In this document: in pieces, positions 965 to 50,979 of the stretch
Layout of the letters: each line of letters starts with the position of its first letter
Numbering within the stretch: position 1 is the first letter of the stretch
Assembly (NCBI GenBank): GCA_937770485.1
Contig: CALJHX010000010.1
Span: 33,901 to 97,900, forward strand
DNA length: 64,000 nucleotides
Reading direction: 5' to 3'
Origin: an uncultured Verrucomicrobiae bacterium
GTDB lineage: Bacteria > Verrucomicrobiota > Verrucomicrobiia > Limisphaerales > UBA1096
The notes under the pieces: model-generated
Told to the model about the DNA's origin: nothing
What the model saw: only the letters and a program-made list of their open reading frames with translations
The model's database searches: none
Program-made: the position numbers and the translations under genes

Positions 965-1018
965 CCAAAAGACTTGCGCCGCTTGGCCAATCGGAACAGC
1001 CTGCCCCTGTTCGACCCT

Positions 1019-1822
1019 ATGCAAAAACTGCGGCAGAACCGGCTTGGCTTCACACTTATCGAATTGCTGGTGGTGATCGCCATCATCGCGATCCTTGCCG
1101 GCATGTTACTGCCCGCATTGGCCAAGGCCAAAAGCAAGGCCACCGGCGCCAAATGTTCGAGTAATTTGCGGCAGATGGGCATCGGCCTTATCGCGTTCTC
1201 GGATGACTTCGGGCACTACCCAGTCGGCATCAACGGCAACCGTGGTTCCACGTGGATTTGGCCGTCGCAAATCCGCCAATACCTCGGTGGGGCCAGCAGC
1301 AAGAGCACCGAGCTTTTCAAATGCCCCTCGGCCCCCGATAAGGCCCAGTGGAAGGTGAAATTCAGGGGCAGCCAACCGGCCGAGGATGGCTATCTAAAGG
1401 GCGAGGTGCGGCTCATCCCTGGCGGCAGCAGTTTTATGAGTTACGGCTACAACGTCTGGGGCGCCTGGGCGGGTATGATCCCAAACCAGGGCATGGGCGT
1501 CTACAAGGGGCACCCCAACTGGGGCGAAACCAAGCCTAGCCAAGTCAAGGTTCCCAGCGAGATGATCGCGCTCGGTGACAGCAATTGGGATCTCAAGCGC
1601 AAGGGGGACCAAAACTGGAGCGGCTTCATCGGGATGTACGAGGAACGACAATGGCCATTGCCGCTACATAGCGATCGGGCCGAAATTTTGTTCGTCGACG
1701 GCCACGTCACCGCCGAGAAACGCATCGACCTCGCAGCCCAACTCGTCAGAGATCAGGCCCGCAAAGACGCTGCAGCCAAGCGCTGGAACCTCGACAACAC
1801 ACCGCACCACAATCGACAATGA
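1019..1822 (+). CDS. Prepilin-type N-terminal cleavage/methylation protein with H-X9-DG motif (DUF1559-like)
   Basis: [26 protein letters not shown]-terminal H-SDRAEILFV-DG; start moved from 974 to ATG 1019 to give a short basic leader. Confidence 0.9.
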   Translation: MQKLRQNRLGFTLIELLVVIAIIAILAGMLLPALAKAKSKATGAKCSSNLRQMGIGLIAFSDDFGHYPVGINGNRGSTWIWPSQIRQYLGGASSKSTELFKCPSAPDKAQWKVKFRGSQPAEDGYLKGEVRLIPGGSSFMSYGYNVWGAWAGMIPNQGMGVYKGHPNWGETKPSQVKVPSEMIALGDSNWDLKRKGDQNWSGFIGMYEERQWPLPLHSDRAEILFVDGHVTAEKRIDLAAQLVRDQARKDAAAKRWNLDNTPHHNRQ

Positions 1823-1829
1823 GCCAAAG

Positions 1830-1854
1830 AAAAAGGGAGCCTCTTGGCTCCCTT
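1830..1854 (-). terminator. Intrinsic terminator between convergent genes
   Basis: Stem aagggagcc/ggctccctt with loop tctt; A-run on the left gives a U-tract on the minus strand. Confidence 0.7.
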
Positions 1855-47525: not shown

Positions 47526-50500
47526 GACAGCACCGCTTCCATCTGGCCAGGATTGAGAGGGACGGTTGTTTTCTTTCCGCTTGGCCAAGCAGCCTCGACC
47601 GCCACCGCCTCCCCTGCCTCCCCCAGCACCTGCGTCGTGCCGTTTGCCGACCGATAACCGGCAACCGCCTGCACCACGCGCACCGGCCCCTTGGTTCCGT
47701 CCGCATAACACAGCCGCAGGCATACCCCCACCCCGTTGGTTTCGCCGTCGATGCGCACCCGCAAGCCTCTGGCCTCCGCTTGGTTTCGGAACAACCGCGT
47801 CTGCGCCCCGTTTTGTGTGACAACCAGATCCACCCGCCCGTCATGGTCGAAGTCCGCCAACGCCGCGCCGCGCTGCTCGCCATCAACTCGCACGCCCGAC
47901 TCGCTTGGCTTAAGCGGCCGAAACGTCCCGTCCCCCCGGCCAAGCATCCACAGCCCGGTGCCCGCGTCGTTCCTCGGATCCTCCGGTCGGACGGCGAAAA
48001 AGTTCTGGCTGAAAAACAAATCGTCATTCCCGTCGGCATCGACGTCGCTGACGCAAACCGCAAACGCCGGTGAGAGTTGAACTGCCATCGGCAGCGGCAC
48101 CGGCTCGAAACGGTCGCCCCTGTTGATGAACAGCGTGGTATCCAAATGGTTGACCTCCATTTTTTTCAGGCGCGCAAACGCCGGCCCGGCGATACCCTTT
48201 ATCCCCGCCCTGACCATTTCGGCGTGCACCGGAAAACGGCTCCCCAAATCCGGCAGCCCCTTTTCCAATGCATGACGGTCGCGCACCGGCAGCCATCTCC
48301 CGCCGACCCGCACGGCCTCCAGTTGCTCGACCGTTCCGTTGCCGTCCACGTCTCCGACGAACAAGGCCAGGCGCGACTCGCCGCCATCCTCGCGTAGTAG
48401 CGTCTCGTAAAAACTGTTGCGGCCCCAGTTGGTGGCGATGATGTCGAGTCGTCCGTCGTTGTTTGCATCGATCATCGCGACGCCGTTCCACCAACCGCGA
48501 TAGTCGGCCAAGCCAAGCGCATCAGTACGCTCGGTGAACAGGCCATCGTCGTTTCGGAACACCCGCACCGGCCCCCACTCGGTGGCCAAGGCCAAGTCAG
48601 CATCACCGTCGCCATCGAGGTCGGCCGCGGCCGAGCCGTTCACCCTCTCCACCGTTTCAAGTGGGTTGGCCCAAGCCGGAACCTCGACCGGTGAACCATC
48701 CATCTTTTTGAACCGGCCAGCTGTGTTGCCAAAAAGTTGGAGCCCACTTTCCGCCACGATGGCCAAGTCCTCCCAGCCGTCACGGTCGACGTCCAGCCAC
48801 GCCACGCCCGGCCCCGCCTGACTGGTGCGGCGCGGCAGCAACGGCTCATCGACGAAATCGCTGACGGGCAACTGCTCATGACGATGGCTGAGTCGCTCAC
48901 TGACATCCTCAAAAATCGGCGTGAGCGCGGTCGTTACGATTGGCTTGGCCTTGGCCTCCGGTTCGTGAATCTCGTACAGTCGGTTGGCCTTCACGTCCTC
49001 CAGAACCGACCGCCCGCCGGCGCGCCAAAGCACCTCGAGCCGGTGCGGCTCGCCCGGGGCCATCGCAAAAACGCGCAGCGGATCGTCGCTGCTCAAGTAC
49101 CGACCGCCGGCCATTATTTCCTGAGACAAGACACTTACCCCGTTGGCCAGGCGAATGCGGGCGCCGATTCCAAACCGGTTGCCGCCTCGCCCGCGCAATC
49201 GCACCGCCACCCTTGGCTTGCTGCTGTCGTTGCGGTACAGCCCCGCCGCCTGGTTCAGGTTGTTGATCACCACGTCCTGATCGCCGTCGTTGTCGAGATC
49301 AGCCAGCGCCATCCCATACGACACGCCCACGTGATCGAACCCCCAGTCGCTCGATGCCGGCGCAAACTTCAAGCCGCCAACGTTGCGGAAGGCGGCGTTG
49401 GCGCTTGGCCAAGCGGGGCGATGTTTACGCAGCCGCTTCAACTCGGCGGTCGGCAGCTTCCTTGCGTTTTGAATCGCCAAGACCCGCTGTTTGCTGTCGA
49501 TGTCCATCGTATCGAAGCTGAACCCGTTGGTGATGAGGACATCCTCAAGGCCATCGAGATCGACATCCATGAACGCCGCGGCCCACGACCAGTCACTCGC
49601 TTCGAGCCCAGCGTAGTTGGCGGCTTCCAACCAGGTGTCGTCTCCTCGTGACACCAACAGCGCGTTGCGATTGTAGCGCGGCCGGCCGTCGAATTTGCCG
49701 ACCACGATCGGGATCGGTTTTTCCTTGTCAAGATGCACCAGCCGCCGCGCCTGCTGTCGGGCGAGCATGTCCAGCAGCAGGAAATCGTCGTGGCCGTCTT
49801 GGTTGATGTCAGCGAAGTCGATGCCCATCGAGGAGCGGCTCGTGTGGCGGACGGCTAGCCTCGGCACCGCCCTGAACCGGCCGCGACCGTCGTTAATCCA
49901 AAACCGGTCGGGACTGCTGAAGTCGTTGCACACATACAGGTCCGGCGCGAGGTCGCCGTTGACATCGCGAAACGCCACGGCCAGGCCCCAGTCGCGTTCG
50001 GCGGCAAACGGCTGGCCATCCTCGTCGGTGAAGCTACCCTGCTCGAACACCATTTTTTGAAACTTGCCGGTGCCGTCGTTCAGGTAAAAACAATCACGCT
50101 CCGGCAGCTCCTTGACCATACCGTCCGGCGTCACGAGGAACCTATCTCGAAACCGCGCCTTAAACGTGGACTGCCCGTTGACGCGAGTGACCACCCACCC
50201 GCCATCCCGCCGCCCCAGCGTGAACCGAGTGGTCAAGTCAGCGATGTATATCACGTCGATGTAATTGGCCACGTACAGGTCGAGGTCGCCGTCGCCGTCC
50301 ACGTCGCTCAGCGCCATGCTCATCGCCGCGCCCCCATTCGCCAAGCCGGTGTCGGCCGGCTCAGAGAACCGGCCCCGGCCGTCGTTCACGAACAACCGCG
50401 TGCCGGCGGTGATCCCGTTGACCAGCAAGTCGGTATGGCCATCGCCGTTGACATCGGCGAACACCGCACCGGTGGAGAGTTGCCCGGCGCAACTGACCCC

Positions 50501-50896
50501 GGACGCATCGGTAATATCAACGAACTTCCAATCTCCGAGGTTCCGGTAAAGTCGATTTGCTCCCTGCAGATTGGCGAAATAAAGATCACACAAACCGTCG
50601 CCGTCCACGTCGGAGGCGGCCACCCCCGCGCCGTTGTGAGCCACGGCATTGGTGAGGAACATTTCGCCGAACAATCGGTTGGTGAAACTCAAACCGGTGA
50701 GTGCCGGCGGCAGGAGTTCAAAACCGGCGGCGCGCGTTCCCGAAACACCTAGCGGGGCGCTTCGATAACCCGGGCCGTTGTCCCATGCCAAGTCGGCTGC
50801 CGGGAGGCCAAGCGGATACAACGCCAGGCAGACAAAACCGGTCAGACACAATGCCGCAAGGGCGCGTTTGGCCAAGCGTGGTTCCGGAAGCGTCAT
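47507..50896 (-). CDS. CRTAC1/ASPIC-UnbV family FG-GAP repeat protein
   Basis: Many DxDGDGxxDL repeats, WSWAAAFMDVDLDG, NRFGIGARI..GGRYLSSD (ASPIC/UnbV); start likely MTLPEP at 50896. Confidence 0.9.
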   Translation of the reverse strand: MTLPEPRLAKRALAALCLTGFVCLALYPLGLPAADLAWDNGPGYRSAPLGVSGTRAAGFELLPPALTGLSFTNRLFGEMFLTNAVAHNGAGVAASDVDGDGLCDLYFANLQGANRLYRNLGDWKFVDITDASGVSCAGQLSTGAVFADVNGDGHTDLLVNGITAGTRLFVNDGRGRFSEPADTGLANGGAAMSMALSDVDGDGDLDLYVANYIDVIYIADLTTRFTLGRRDGGWVVTRVNGQSTFKARFRDRFLVTPDGMVKELPERDCFYLNDGTGKFQKMVFEQGSFTDEDGQPFAAERDWGLAVAFRDVNGDLAPDLYVCNDFSSPDRFWINDGRGRFRAVPRLAVRHTSRSSMGIDFADINQDGHDDFLLLDMLARQQARRLVHLDKEKPIPIVVGKFDGRPRYNRNALLVSRGDDTWLEAANYAGLEASDWSWAAAFMDVDLDGLEDVLITNGFSFDTMDIDSKQRVLAIQNARKLPTAELKRLRKHRPAWPSANAAFRNVGGLKFAPASSDWGFDHVGVSYGMALADLDNDGDQDVVINNLNQAAGLYRNDSSKPRVAVRLRGRGGNRFGIGARIRLANGVSVLSQEIMAGGRYLSSDDPLRVFAMAPGEPHRLEVLWRAGGRSVLEDVKANRLYEIHEPEAKAKPIVTTALTPIFEDVSERLSHRHEQLPVSDFVDEPLLPRRTSQAGPGVAWLDVDRDGWEDLAIVAESGLQLFGNTAGRFKKMDGSPVEVPAWANPLETVERVNGSAAADLDGDGDADLALATEWGPVRVFRNDDGLFTERTDALGLADYRGWWNGVAMIDANNDGRLDIIATNWGRNSFYETLLREDGGESRLALFVGDVDGNGTVEQLEAVRVGGRWLPVRDRHALEKGLPDLGSRFPVHAEMVRAGIKGIAGPAFARLKKMEVNHLDTTLFINRGDRFEPVPLPMAVQLSPAFAVCVSDVDADGNDDLFFSQNFFAVRPEDPRNDAGTGLWMLGRGDGTFRPLKPSESGVRVDGEQRGAALADFDHDGRVDLVVTQNGAQTRLFRNQAEARGLRVRIDGETNGVGVCLRLCYADGTKGPVRVVQAVAGYRSANGTTQVLGEAGEAVAVEAAWPSGKKTTVPLNPGQMEAVLSYPSEP

Positions 50897-50979
50897 CGCC
50901 CCCATCAAGCCCCAAACCGGGGCCAAGGCCAACGCAAAAGCGCCGCTTGGCCAAGCGGATGGAGGGCCCACTGCCCTGC

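Follow-up and report, generated by a model that had tools for sequence, protein, structure and literature searches.

Several kinds of short, highly iterated DNA word have been described in bacteria. Sequence-specific DNA uptake is known from two proteobacterial families only (10.1101/2025.10.24.684340), its words being the DNA uptake sequences (DUS) of the Neisseriaceae and the uptake signal sequences (USS) of the Pasteurellaceae. USS and DUS distort the peptides that they encode and are absent from genes without homologues (Findlay and Redfield, PMC2817400), and competence is frequently lost (Redfield et al., PMC1626085). In cyanobacteria, HIP1 (highly iterated palindrome 1, GCGATCGC) and the alternate HIPs are always accompanied by a methyltransferase of matching specificity (Elhai 2015, PMC4390886), and HIP1 boosts transformation when it is methylated (10.1101/2024.09.10.611283). 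For about 30 years the function of HIP1 has been an open question; lately HIP1 was proposed to be an uptake signal from its correlation with secretion and transformation proteins (PMC13756078). The subject of the present work is a 14-bp palindrome, CGCTTGGCCAAGCG, with an 8-bp core, TTGGCCAA, in a 64,000-nucleotide stretch of DNA (the window) from an uncultured Verrucomicrobiae bacterium. The window lies on contig C10 of a 3.30-Mb assembly (46 contigs, 83% complete, 56.4% G+C). The genus, which is the whole of its GTDB family, is represented by 26 genomes, coded G000 to G041 here; G000 is the genome that carries the window. Comparison of these genomes makes it somewhat probable that the palindrome is a self-DNA tag in natural transformation, a counterpart of DUS and USS that would be spread by molecular drive.

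The palindrome shares many features with DUS and USS. It is present in hundreds to thousands of copies, about one per kb, with a strong core and graded flanks; it lies within genes, in several frames, as well as in spacers, and inflates the peptides that it encodes. It is common to related species and absent outside the group, is scarce in some long stretches, and needs no methylation. The genus encodes ComEC, DprA, ComM and pilus genes, competence-gene loss is frequent, and motif abundance follows competence. The differences are that the word is a perfect palindrome, whereas DUS and USS are asymmetric; that it belongs to Verrucomicrobiota and not to Proteobacteria; and that it is not enriched in 3′ spacers or terminators, where inverted pairs are common, although not defining, in DUS and USS. 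The comparison is by genome features alone, whereas preferential uptake is the defining property of these sequences, and a ComP-type receptor is found only in the known system. Because the defining assay needs more than genomes, membership among the uptake sequences is unproven.

Like HIP1 and the alternate HIPs, the word is a hyper-abundant GC-rich palindrome of coding and non-coding DNA with one-off variants at its outer positions, is conserved above the neutral level and may likewise be scarce in islands (for these features of HIP1, see PMC13756078 and PMC4390886). It differs from them in having no matching methyltransferase, in phylum and word, and in its longer consensus (14–16 bp). Repetitive extragenic palindromic (REP) elements and miniature inverted-repeat transposable elements (MITEs) are also palindromic and multicopy, with some copies in genes; the present word, unlike them, has no conserved unit beyond 16 bp, arises by substitution, and is spread evenly over genes in three frames. 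A literature search turned up no account of this word, nor of any uptake sequence in Verrucomicrobia, in agreement with an earlier reading of the window's letters by a model (the original prediction), which was aware of none; HIP1 supplementary tables, which may list alternate HIPs, were outside the scope of the search. Searches with the bare word gave only primers or eukaryotic contexts among the top-ranked matches, and "TGGCCA" is absent from the available part of Elhai 2015 (PMC4390886).

Iteration of the word in the window and the genome

The window contained five perfect copies of the 14-mer, all of them where the original prediction had placed them, and none of 100 dinucleotide-preserving shuffles yielded any. 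The copy at 30049 lies within an 18-bp palindrome, as had also been proposed, and the copy at 50944 additionally forms a palindrome of 16 bp. Seventeen sites had no more than one mismatch, compared with a shuffle mean of 0.06. All ten of the one-mismatch sites named in the original prediction were real; two more, at 15648 and 15732, had been overlooked. The 17 sites are as follows.

13550..13563, unstranded, perfect 14-bp palindrome, in an alanine-racemase-like open reading frame (ORF), 13444-14553
14637..14650, unstranded, perfect 14-bp palindrome, in a spacer between ORFs
30047..30064, unstranded, perfect copy (14-mer at 30049) within an 18-bp palindrome, in a MotA/ExbB-family ORF, 28726-30108
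49402..49415, unstranded, perfect 14-bp palindrome, in an FG-GAP ORF, 47507-50983
50943..50958, unstranded, perfect copy (14-mer at 50944) within a 16-bp palindrome, in the same FG-GAP ORF, 47507-50983
980..993, unstranded, one-mismatch copy
4197..4210, unstranded, one-mismatch copy downstream of pnp, position kept in most motif-rich species
4250..4263, unstranded, one-mismatch copy downstream of pnp, position kept in most motif-rich species
13673..13686, unstranded, one-mismatch copy
15648..15661, unstranded, one-mismatch copy, overlooked earlier
15732..15745, unstranded, one-mismatch copy with the mismatch inside the core, overlooked earlier
25669..25682, unstranded, one-mismatch copy
26970..26983, unstranded, one-mismatch copy with the core variant CTGGCCAA
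32333..32346, unstranded, one-mismatch copy
41929..41942, unstranded, one-mismatch copy
47578..47591, unstranded, one-mismatch copy
50865..50878, unstranded, one-mismatch copy

Confinement of the motif to the window was excluded. G000 contained 276 perfect 14-mers, compared with 0 for a reversed control word, and the word was present on every one of the 46 contigs at 0.22–1.06 cores per kb. When k-mers were counted, the top words at each length from 8 to 16 were the motif or its parts: TTGGCCAA occurred 2,074 times, CTTGGCCAAG 1,288 times and GCTTGGCCAAGC 585 times, and 12-mers with up to two mismatches numbered 3,180. Relative to base composition, the 8-mer was 44-fold and the 14-mer about 11,700-fold in excess.

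A codon-preserving shuffle, which the original prediction had recommended, was performed on 2,233 crudely called genes (85% coding), each gene having its own synonymous codons permuted in 30 replicates. The enrichment survived: genes contained 197 14-mers versus 3.7 ± 2.1 (maximum 9) after shuffling, a 53-fold excess, and 1,737 copies of the 8-mer core versus 271. The core had been proposed as GGCC/TGGCCA. The GGCC part of that proposal did not hold, GGCC alone being unenriched (observed/expected 1.3 by composition and 0.9 after the codon shuffle); instead, the enrichment lies in the core TTGGCCAA.

Spacing of the motif was over-dispersed: short distances were in excess, and 12 motif-free gaps were longer than 12.8 kb where 0.4 were expected. 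No strict period was seen in the motif spacing of G000. The commonest short spacing there was 12 bp (11 pairs), with copies sometimes successive in a 12-bp register, and a 16-mer covering two adjacent half-sites occurred 67 times.

Position, reading frame and encoded peptides

Information content peaked in the 8-bp core, tapered off across four further bases at either end (C 78%, G 58%, C 53%, then S) and was zero beyond these four bases; therefore, the word is not part of a larger repeat unit. Given the core, the two flanks were independent of each other (maximal-order Markov observed/expected ratios of 0.93–1.22 for lengths 6–16), and one-off variants clustered at the outer motif positions.

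The 276 perfect copies comprised 73 in intergenic DNA, 6 across gene ends, and others encoding LGQA (126), RLAKR (40) or AWPS (31), so that 73% were wholly or partly within genes. The original prediction had described copies between genes and in all three of these frames, and all three were indeed used; together with the codon-preserving shuffle, this frame usage supports its view that the signal operates at the DNA level. Core density was 0.62 per kb within genes and 0.69 per kb between them. Because densities were similar in divergent, tandem and convergent spacers (0.80, 0.83 and 0.96 per kb, respectively), with no marked preference for any type, a promoter or terminator element was rejected. 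The encoded peptides exceeded amino-acid expectation 3.6-fold for LAK, 16-fold for LGQA, 17-fold for AWPS and 49-fold for RLAKR, and 791 of the 1,538 LAK tripeptides were spelled TTGGCCAAG.

Origin and persistence of copies

The pnp gene was found in 24 of the 26 genomes, and 23 orthologous loci of at least 3.2 kb were aligned; a 1.9-kb fragment from G022 was left out. Motif sites at this locus differed among the 23 species by point substitutions, with many one-off intermediates and no inserted unit, and the frequent decay states were transitions in GGCC. These results bear on the possibility that the copies are ends or cores of a REP- or MITE-type mobile repeat. A mobile repeat would account for the palindromic form and for the few copies that cluster in spacers, as downstream of pnp, but it is contradicted by the lack of flank information, by substitutions in place of insertions between orthologues, and by the presence of 73% of copies in genes, in three frames. 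The original prediction had recognized such an origin as fatal to its proposal; we rejected it on the flank logo and the orthologous alignment (no search for RAYT transposases was made) and give it practically no chance of being correct.

Downstream of pnp, three to four motif copies lie 30–55 bp apart (window 4197-4263); their positions are kept in most motif-rich species, and their flanks diverge.

Persistence of the word was examined by aligning G000 with its sister G007 (100,092 columns, 89.3% identity). Cores were intact in both genomes at 62 of 83 sites, compared with 1,014 of 2,146 same-phase 8-mers located 12–48 nt away (p = 4e-7), and per-base divergence was 0.038 in the motif versus 0.110 in its flanks. 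From this excess of intact cores and the lower divergence of the motif, we conclude that the word is actively maintained. Two other competent species, G019 and G010, showed like protection of sites relative to G000 at about 82% identity.

Distribution in the genus

The 12-mer occurred 144–1,852 times in 21 of the 26 genomes and 6–14 times in the other five, compared with 0–6 times for the control. Sixteen other families of the order had 0–3 copies, and none of 300 other genomes of the phylum, representing 149 genera, had more than five. The lineage-specific signal that the original prediction had envisaged is thus restricted to one genus. The nearest PNPase relatives were at 95% identity, followed by others at 66% (Verrucomicrobiia).

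The five motif-poor species formed one clade (100/100) on a long branch. This clade is low in G+C: its pnp loci have 42–46%, and 369 kb of G001 have 40.2%. No replacement palindrome was found in the 369 kb of G001 examined; that genome retains a faint excess of the same word (core 6.7-fold, 10-mer 26-fold). Motif-rich phages were considered and rejected: a 14-mer scan of viral contigs gave at least 119 stretches, and the 80 matches listed were single, on different contigs, and at background level.

DNA methyltransferases

Six-frame searches of G000 gave no match to the C5 (PF00145), N4/N6 (PF01555), D12 (PF02086), Vsr (PF03852) or Eco57I-type (PF07669) families. The sole N6_Mtase (PF02384) match was PrmC, and Pfam scans showed that none of the 33 called G000 proteins with a [DNS]PP[YFWH] tetrapeptide was a DNA methyltransferase. 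Among the 26 genomes, only G010 and G008 gave matches to the C5 family, and only G008 to the N4/N6 and D12 families, so that the 21 motif-rich genomes had C5 in one and neither N4/N6 nor D12 in any. Because no methyltransferase of matching specificity was found, the HIP1 model fails its key test. The methyltransferase-linked analogy drawn in the original prediction thus fell, and a methyltransferase or Vsr link was rejected, nothing fitting having appeared in G000 or in the genus-wide family searches.

G008, which is motif-poor, was the only genome with several DNA methyltransferases: two C5 matches, N4/N6 matches on two contigs, and one D12 match. One of its N4/N6 matches has six in-frame stops.

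The word could still be a true HIP1 analogue, a methylation-dependent signal, if its methyltransferase belonged to an unrecognised family. The GC-rich palindrome, the use of all frames, the outer one-offs and the conservation above neutral would all fit, and TGGCCA and GGCC are classical restriction-modification targets. We consider this very improbable: the main methyltransferase families are essentially absent from the 21 rich genomes, and the one genome with several of these enzymes has few copies of the word.

A functionless repair bias would also act on near-matches, converting them to the word by a very-short-patch-like process with an unrecognised nuclease or glycosylase. Such a bias could explain why the two halves vary independently around the core, why one-offs concentrate on the outer positions, and why transitions in GGCC are the frequent decay states. 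It is nevertheless improbable in our view, because G000 lacks Vsr, the genus has no shared cytosine methyltransferase that would create a need for such repair, and the link to ComEC, DprA and ComM described below would be left unexplained.

Competence genes and their loss

ComEC, DprA and ComM were sought by six-frame Pfam searches of all 26 genomes and were detected in 14, 14 and 15 of them, respectively. At least one of the three was present in 19 genomes. Because the mean completeness of those 19 was 77%, 14–15 detections among them match universal presence; the three genomes that were at least 90% complete had all three genes. None of the three was found in G001, G004, G006, G008, G024, G041 or G011, and these are the genomes with the seven lowest motif densities: 2–5, 45 and 119 12-mers per Mb versus 150–567 in the other 19 (one-sided rank test, p = 1.5e-6, with genomes that are not independent; densities are approximate, because genome sizes other than that of G000 were rounded).

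The conserved neighborhoods of two of these genes showed how they were lost. In G000, the genes on either side of DprA, one NuoN-like and the other coding for 349 aa, are separated by 1,618 bp. The same neighbors are about 513, 555, 538 and 160 bp apart in G006, G008, G011 and G041, respectively, with no DprA between them, and in G001 DprA is gone and the NuoN-like gene adjoins the next gene but one. The locus was left unscored in G004, where the contig ends, and in G024, G012, G009 and G020, where the anchor is unassembled. ComEC lies within a conserved run, VWA-AlaS-Ig-VanZ-ComEC-x480-x599, in G010, G016, G021 and G019. In G011, VanZ and x480 are about 300 bp apart with no ComEC; in G041 nothing but an opposite-strand ORF of 498 aa occupies the ComEC interval; and in G001, G004, G008 and G024 the 6–10 kb beyond VanZ contain no ComEC. 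The absences of ComEC and DprA at these conserved loci are real deletions.

In a tree of AlaS plus PNPase, G011 was sister to the competent G007 (91/93), G041 stood apart, and the low-GC clade was elsewhere; because the three are separate, we count three independent losses of competence. The original prediction had offered DNA uptake sequences as one analogue of the word, and that suggestion is supported by the co-variation with ComEC, DprA and ComM and by the synteny-verified deletions.

PilM-type pilus machinery was found in 20 of the 26 genomes. ComEA, sought through the HHH_3 domain, was uninformative, with matches in 370–510-aa ORFs of both groups. In many genomes, including competence-less ones, a ComEA-like HHH_3 ORF adjoins a PilM-like ORF (for example, G019:C25:2608-3727, G010:C174:4431-5847 and G001:C49:47222-48332).

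The same co-variation with competence genes would be seen if the word acted after uptake, directing recombination or processing of the incoming single strand, for example as a hairpin for loading of DprA, RecA or ComM or as a Chi-like hotspot; the drive would then come from biased recombination and not from uptake. ComM and DprA act after uptake. Kamoku and Nielsen propose uptake plus a Chi-like role for HIP1. Folded as single-stranded DNA, the word can give a small hairpin of −3.3 kcal/mol (14-mer) or −7 kcal/mol (18-mer), but the hairpin is weak, since 9–11 of 200 shuffles folded equally well. Chi sites are asymmetric and far less enriched. Sequence data cannot separate uptake from recombination, and we regard a post-uptake signal as possible, if unlikely.

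Alternatively, the word might be a weakly selected site for an abundant dimeric DNA-binding protein unrelated to uptake, which would fade through weaker selection without recombination or through co-loss of the binder's gene. The graded, two-fold symmetric consensus of 14–16 bp resembles a dimer site, density is uniform over genes and spacer types, conservation is above neutral, and with three independent contrasts a co-lost gene is compatible with the data. This explanation is unlikely: the same coincidence would have to have occurred in three lineages, no candidate protein emerged, and nucleoid or segregation sites number tens, not thousands.

Proposed mechanism and decay after competence loss

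If the word is a self-DNA tag, competent cells would take up or recombine fragments that bear it more readily than other fragments. Homologous replacement after this biased uptake or recombination would drive near-matches toward the word and protect existing copies, and point mutations that improve a near-match would be passed on by transformation oftener than those that spoil one, which is molecular drive. Such drive would fill genes and spacers, bend codon choice and amino-acid sequence, and slow the decay of copies already present. Once competence genes were lost, the drive would stop, and copies would erode by ordinary mutation. The two-fold symmetry of the word suggests that its receptor may bind as a dimer. 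This mechanism is the one established for DUS and USS, and it accounts most simply for the findings as a whole. We infer transformation in these bacteria, the uptake or recombination preference for the word, and the receptor itself.

Three measures of erosion were obtained. The ratio of perfect to one-off 12-mers was 0.31 in G041 and 0.42 in G011, compared with 0.59 in G000, 0.65 in G019, 0.81 in G012 and 1.12 in G010. When cores were counted in the same aligned DNA, G000 and its competent partners had 83 versus 93 (G007), 251 versus 242 (G019) and 160 versus 222 (G010), whereas comparison with the loss partners gave 126 versus 102 (G011), 228 versus 93 (G041) and 103 versus 13 (G001). Divergence at G000 sites relative to their flanks was 0.34, 0.55 and 0.47 for the competent partners G007, G019 and G010, and 0.62, 0.73 and 1.01 for the loss partners G011, G041 and G001. 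The faint excess and the lack of site protection in G001, the oldest loss, are signs of decay.

We give about even chances to the broader proposal that the word represents a third, independently evolved family of uptake sequences, the first that is palindromic and the first outside Proteobacteria, methylation-free, with the genus forming a time series of decay. As part of that proposal, the series would run from a pseudogene stage through a recent deletion and an older deletion to near-complete erasure.

A number of observations weigh against a self-DNA tag. No receptor candidate (for example, a ComP-like protein) turned up, and no search aimed at receptors was made. As noted above, the word is palindromic and has no 3′ spacer preference, unlike the asymmetric, terminator-paired uptake sequences. 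PilM was kept in all seven loss genomes; it was therefore rejected as a discriminator and shows only that a pilus exists. In G000 itself, DprA and ComM were found and ComEC was not; G000 cannot be scored for ComEC, because the assembly lacks the whole neighborhood, the essential alaS included.

Some of the genes that were detected are incomplete. The ComEC match of G007 covers residues 1-270 only (G007:C104, L209:9402-10764) and is followed by 553 nt of unrelated sequence at the contig end, so either the gene is disrupted or the assembly breaks there. For G005, DprA is matched in two pieces that lie in overlapping frames, and ComM by a fragment of 32 residues containing a TGA stop (DprA/ComM contigs G005:C567 and G005:C14), which could reflect decay or errors in a metagenome-assembled genome (MAG) of 580 contigs. 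G012 has a ComM pseudogene (G012:C90, L433:2198-2905) in which residues 4-41 are fused to 311-511 by an internal deletion of about 270 codons, with two in-frame stops, and 24 N are present at the locus. ComEC and DprA were undetected in G012, both loci being unassembled, and the genome is still dense in the word (363 12-mers per Mb). We read G012 as a very recent loss of competence, a reading that requires an extra assumption.

The contrast provided by G011 is also small. It retains G000 sites at the same frequency (61/126 = 0.48) as the equally diverged competent G019 (121/251 = 0.48), and therefore G011 alone is weak evidence. Site conservation was rejected as a discriminator for this recent loss, since two equally diverged competent controls gave 0.48 and 0.67, compared with 0.48 in G011. 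The core density of G011, 0.53 per kb, is slightly under the 0.63 of G000, and its 12-mer density of 119 per Mb is near the 150 of the competent G017. Only three clean independent contrasts are available (sign test, p = 0.125), and all of the genomes are MAGs, 59–93% complete, of uncultured organisms known from genomes alone.

Base composition is a further consideration. G+C is lowest in two of the three loss lineages, at 40% (G001) and 51% (G041), compared with 56–61% in competent species, and AT-biased mutation may add to motif erosion. G011, the recent loss, is still at 57% G+C; the core is 50% G+C, and base composition alone predicts almost no change in its abundance. Low G+C in the loss lineages would fit the loss of recombination-linked, GC-biased conversion after competence loss. 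This side comparison used G001, G004, G006, G008, G024 and G041 at loci L018, L019, L022, L023, L026 and L027, with samples L143-L162 and L241-L260.

If the palindrome is a self-DNA tag, the known range of self-DNA recognition in transformation would be widened to a third phylum, and natural competence would be implied in abundant uncultured Verrucomicrobiota. HIP-type palindromes could then be transformation signals without methylation, which would support the uptake-tag hypothesis for cyanobacterial HIP1 and perhaps for iterated palindromes of other phyla. The molecular-drive model would be testable from genomes alone, by comparing the rates at which the word is gained and lost before competence disappears and afterwards. 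In practical terms, the word would serve as a marker of core versus foreign DNA in MAGs of these bacteria, and comparison of an iterated word with the competence-gene profile would be a simple screen for other unexplained iterated palindromes.

Bare cores and core-poor DNA in the window

In addition to the 17 sites listed above, the window contains bare copies of the core.

1118..1125, unstranded, bare TTGGCCAA core
4548..4555, unstranded, bare core in pnp
7801..7808, unstranded, bare core
15830..15837, unstranded, bare core
24973..24980, unstranded, bare core
25987..25994, unstranded, bare core
26737..26744, unstranded, bare core
32144..32151, unstranded, bare core
39214..39221, unstranded, bare core, the sole one within three giant genes
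40769..40776, unstranded, bare core
42839..42846, unstranded, bare core

The pnp, rho and giant genes had been said to be free of near-perfect copies. That holds for copies with up to one mismatch; bare cores are present at 4548 in pnp and at 39214 in a giant gene. The three giant LamG/PA14/TSP-type genes (32484-39317, 43013-46708 and 54233-62077) together have one core, compared with about 11.5 expected at the genome mean, and the final 13 kb of the window (50947-64000) have 0. These core-poor genes and the final 13 kb may be young, fast-turning-over or acquired DNA.

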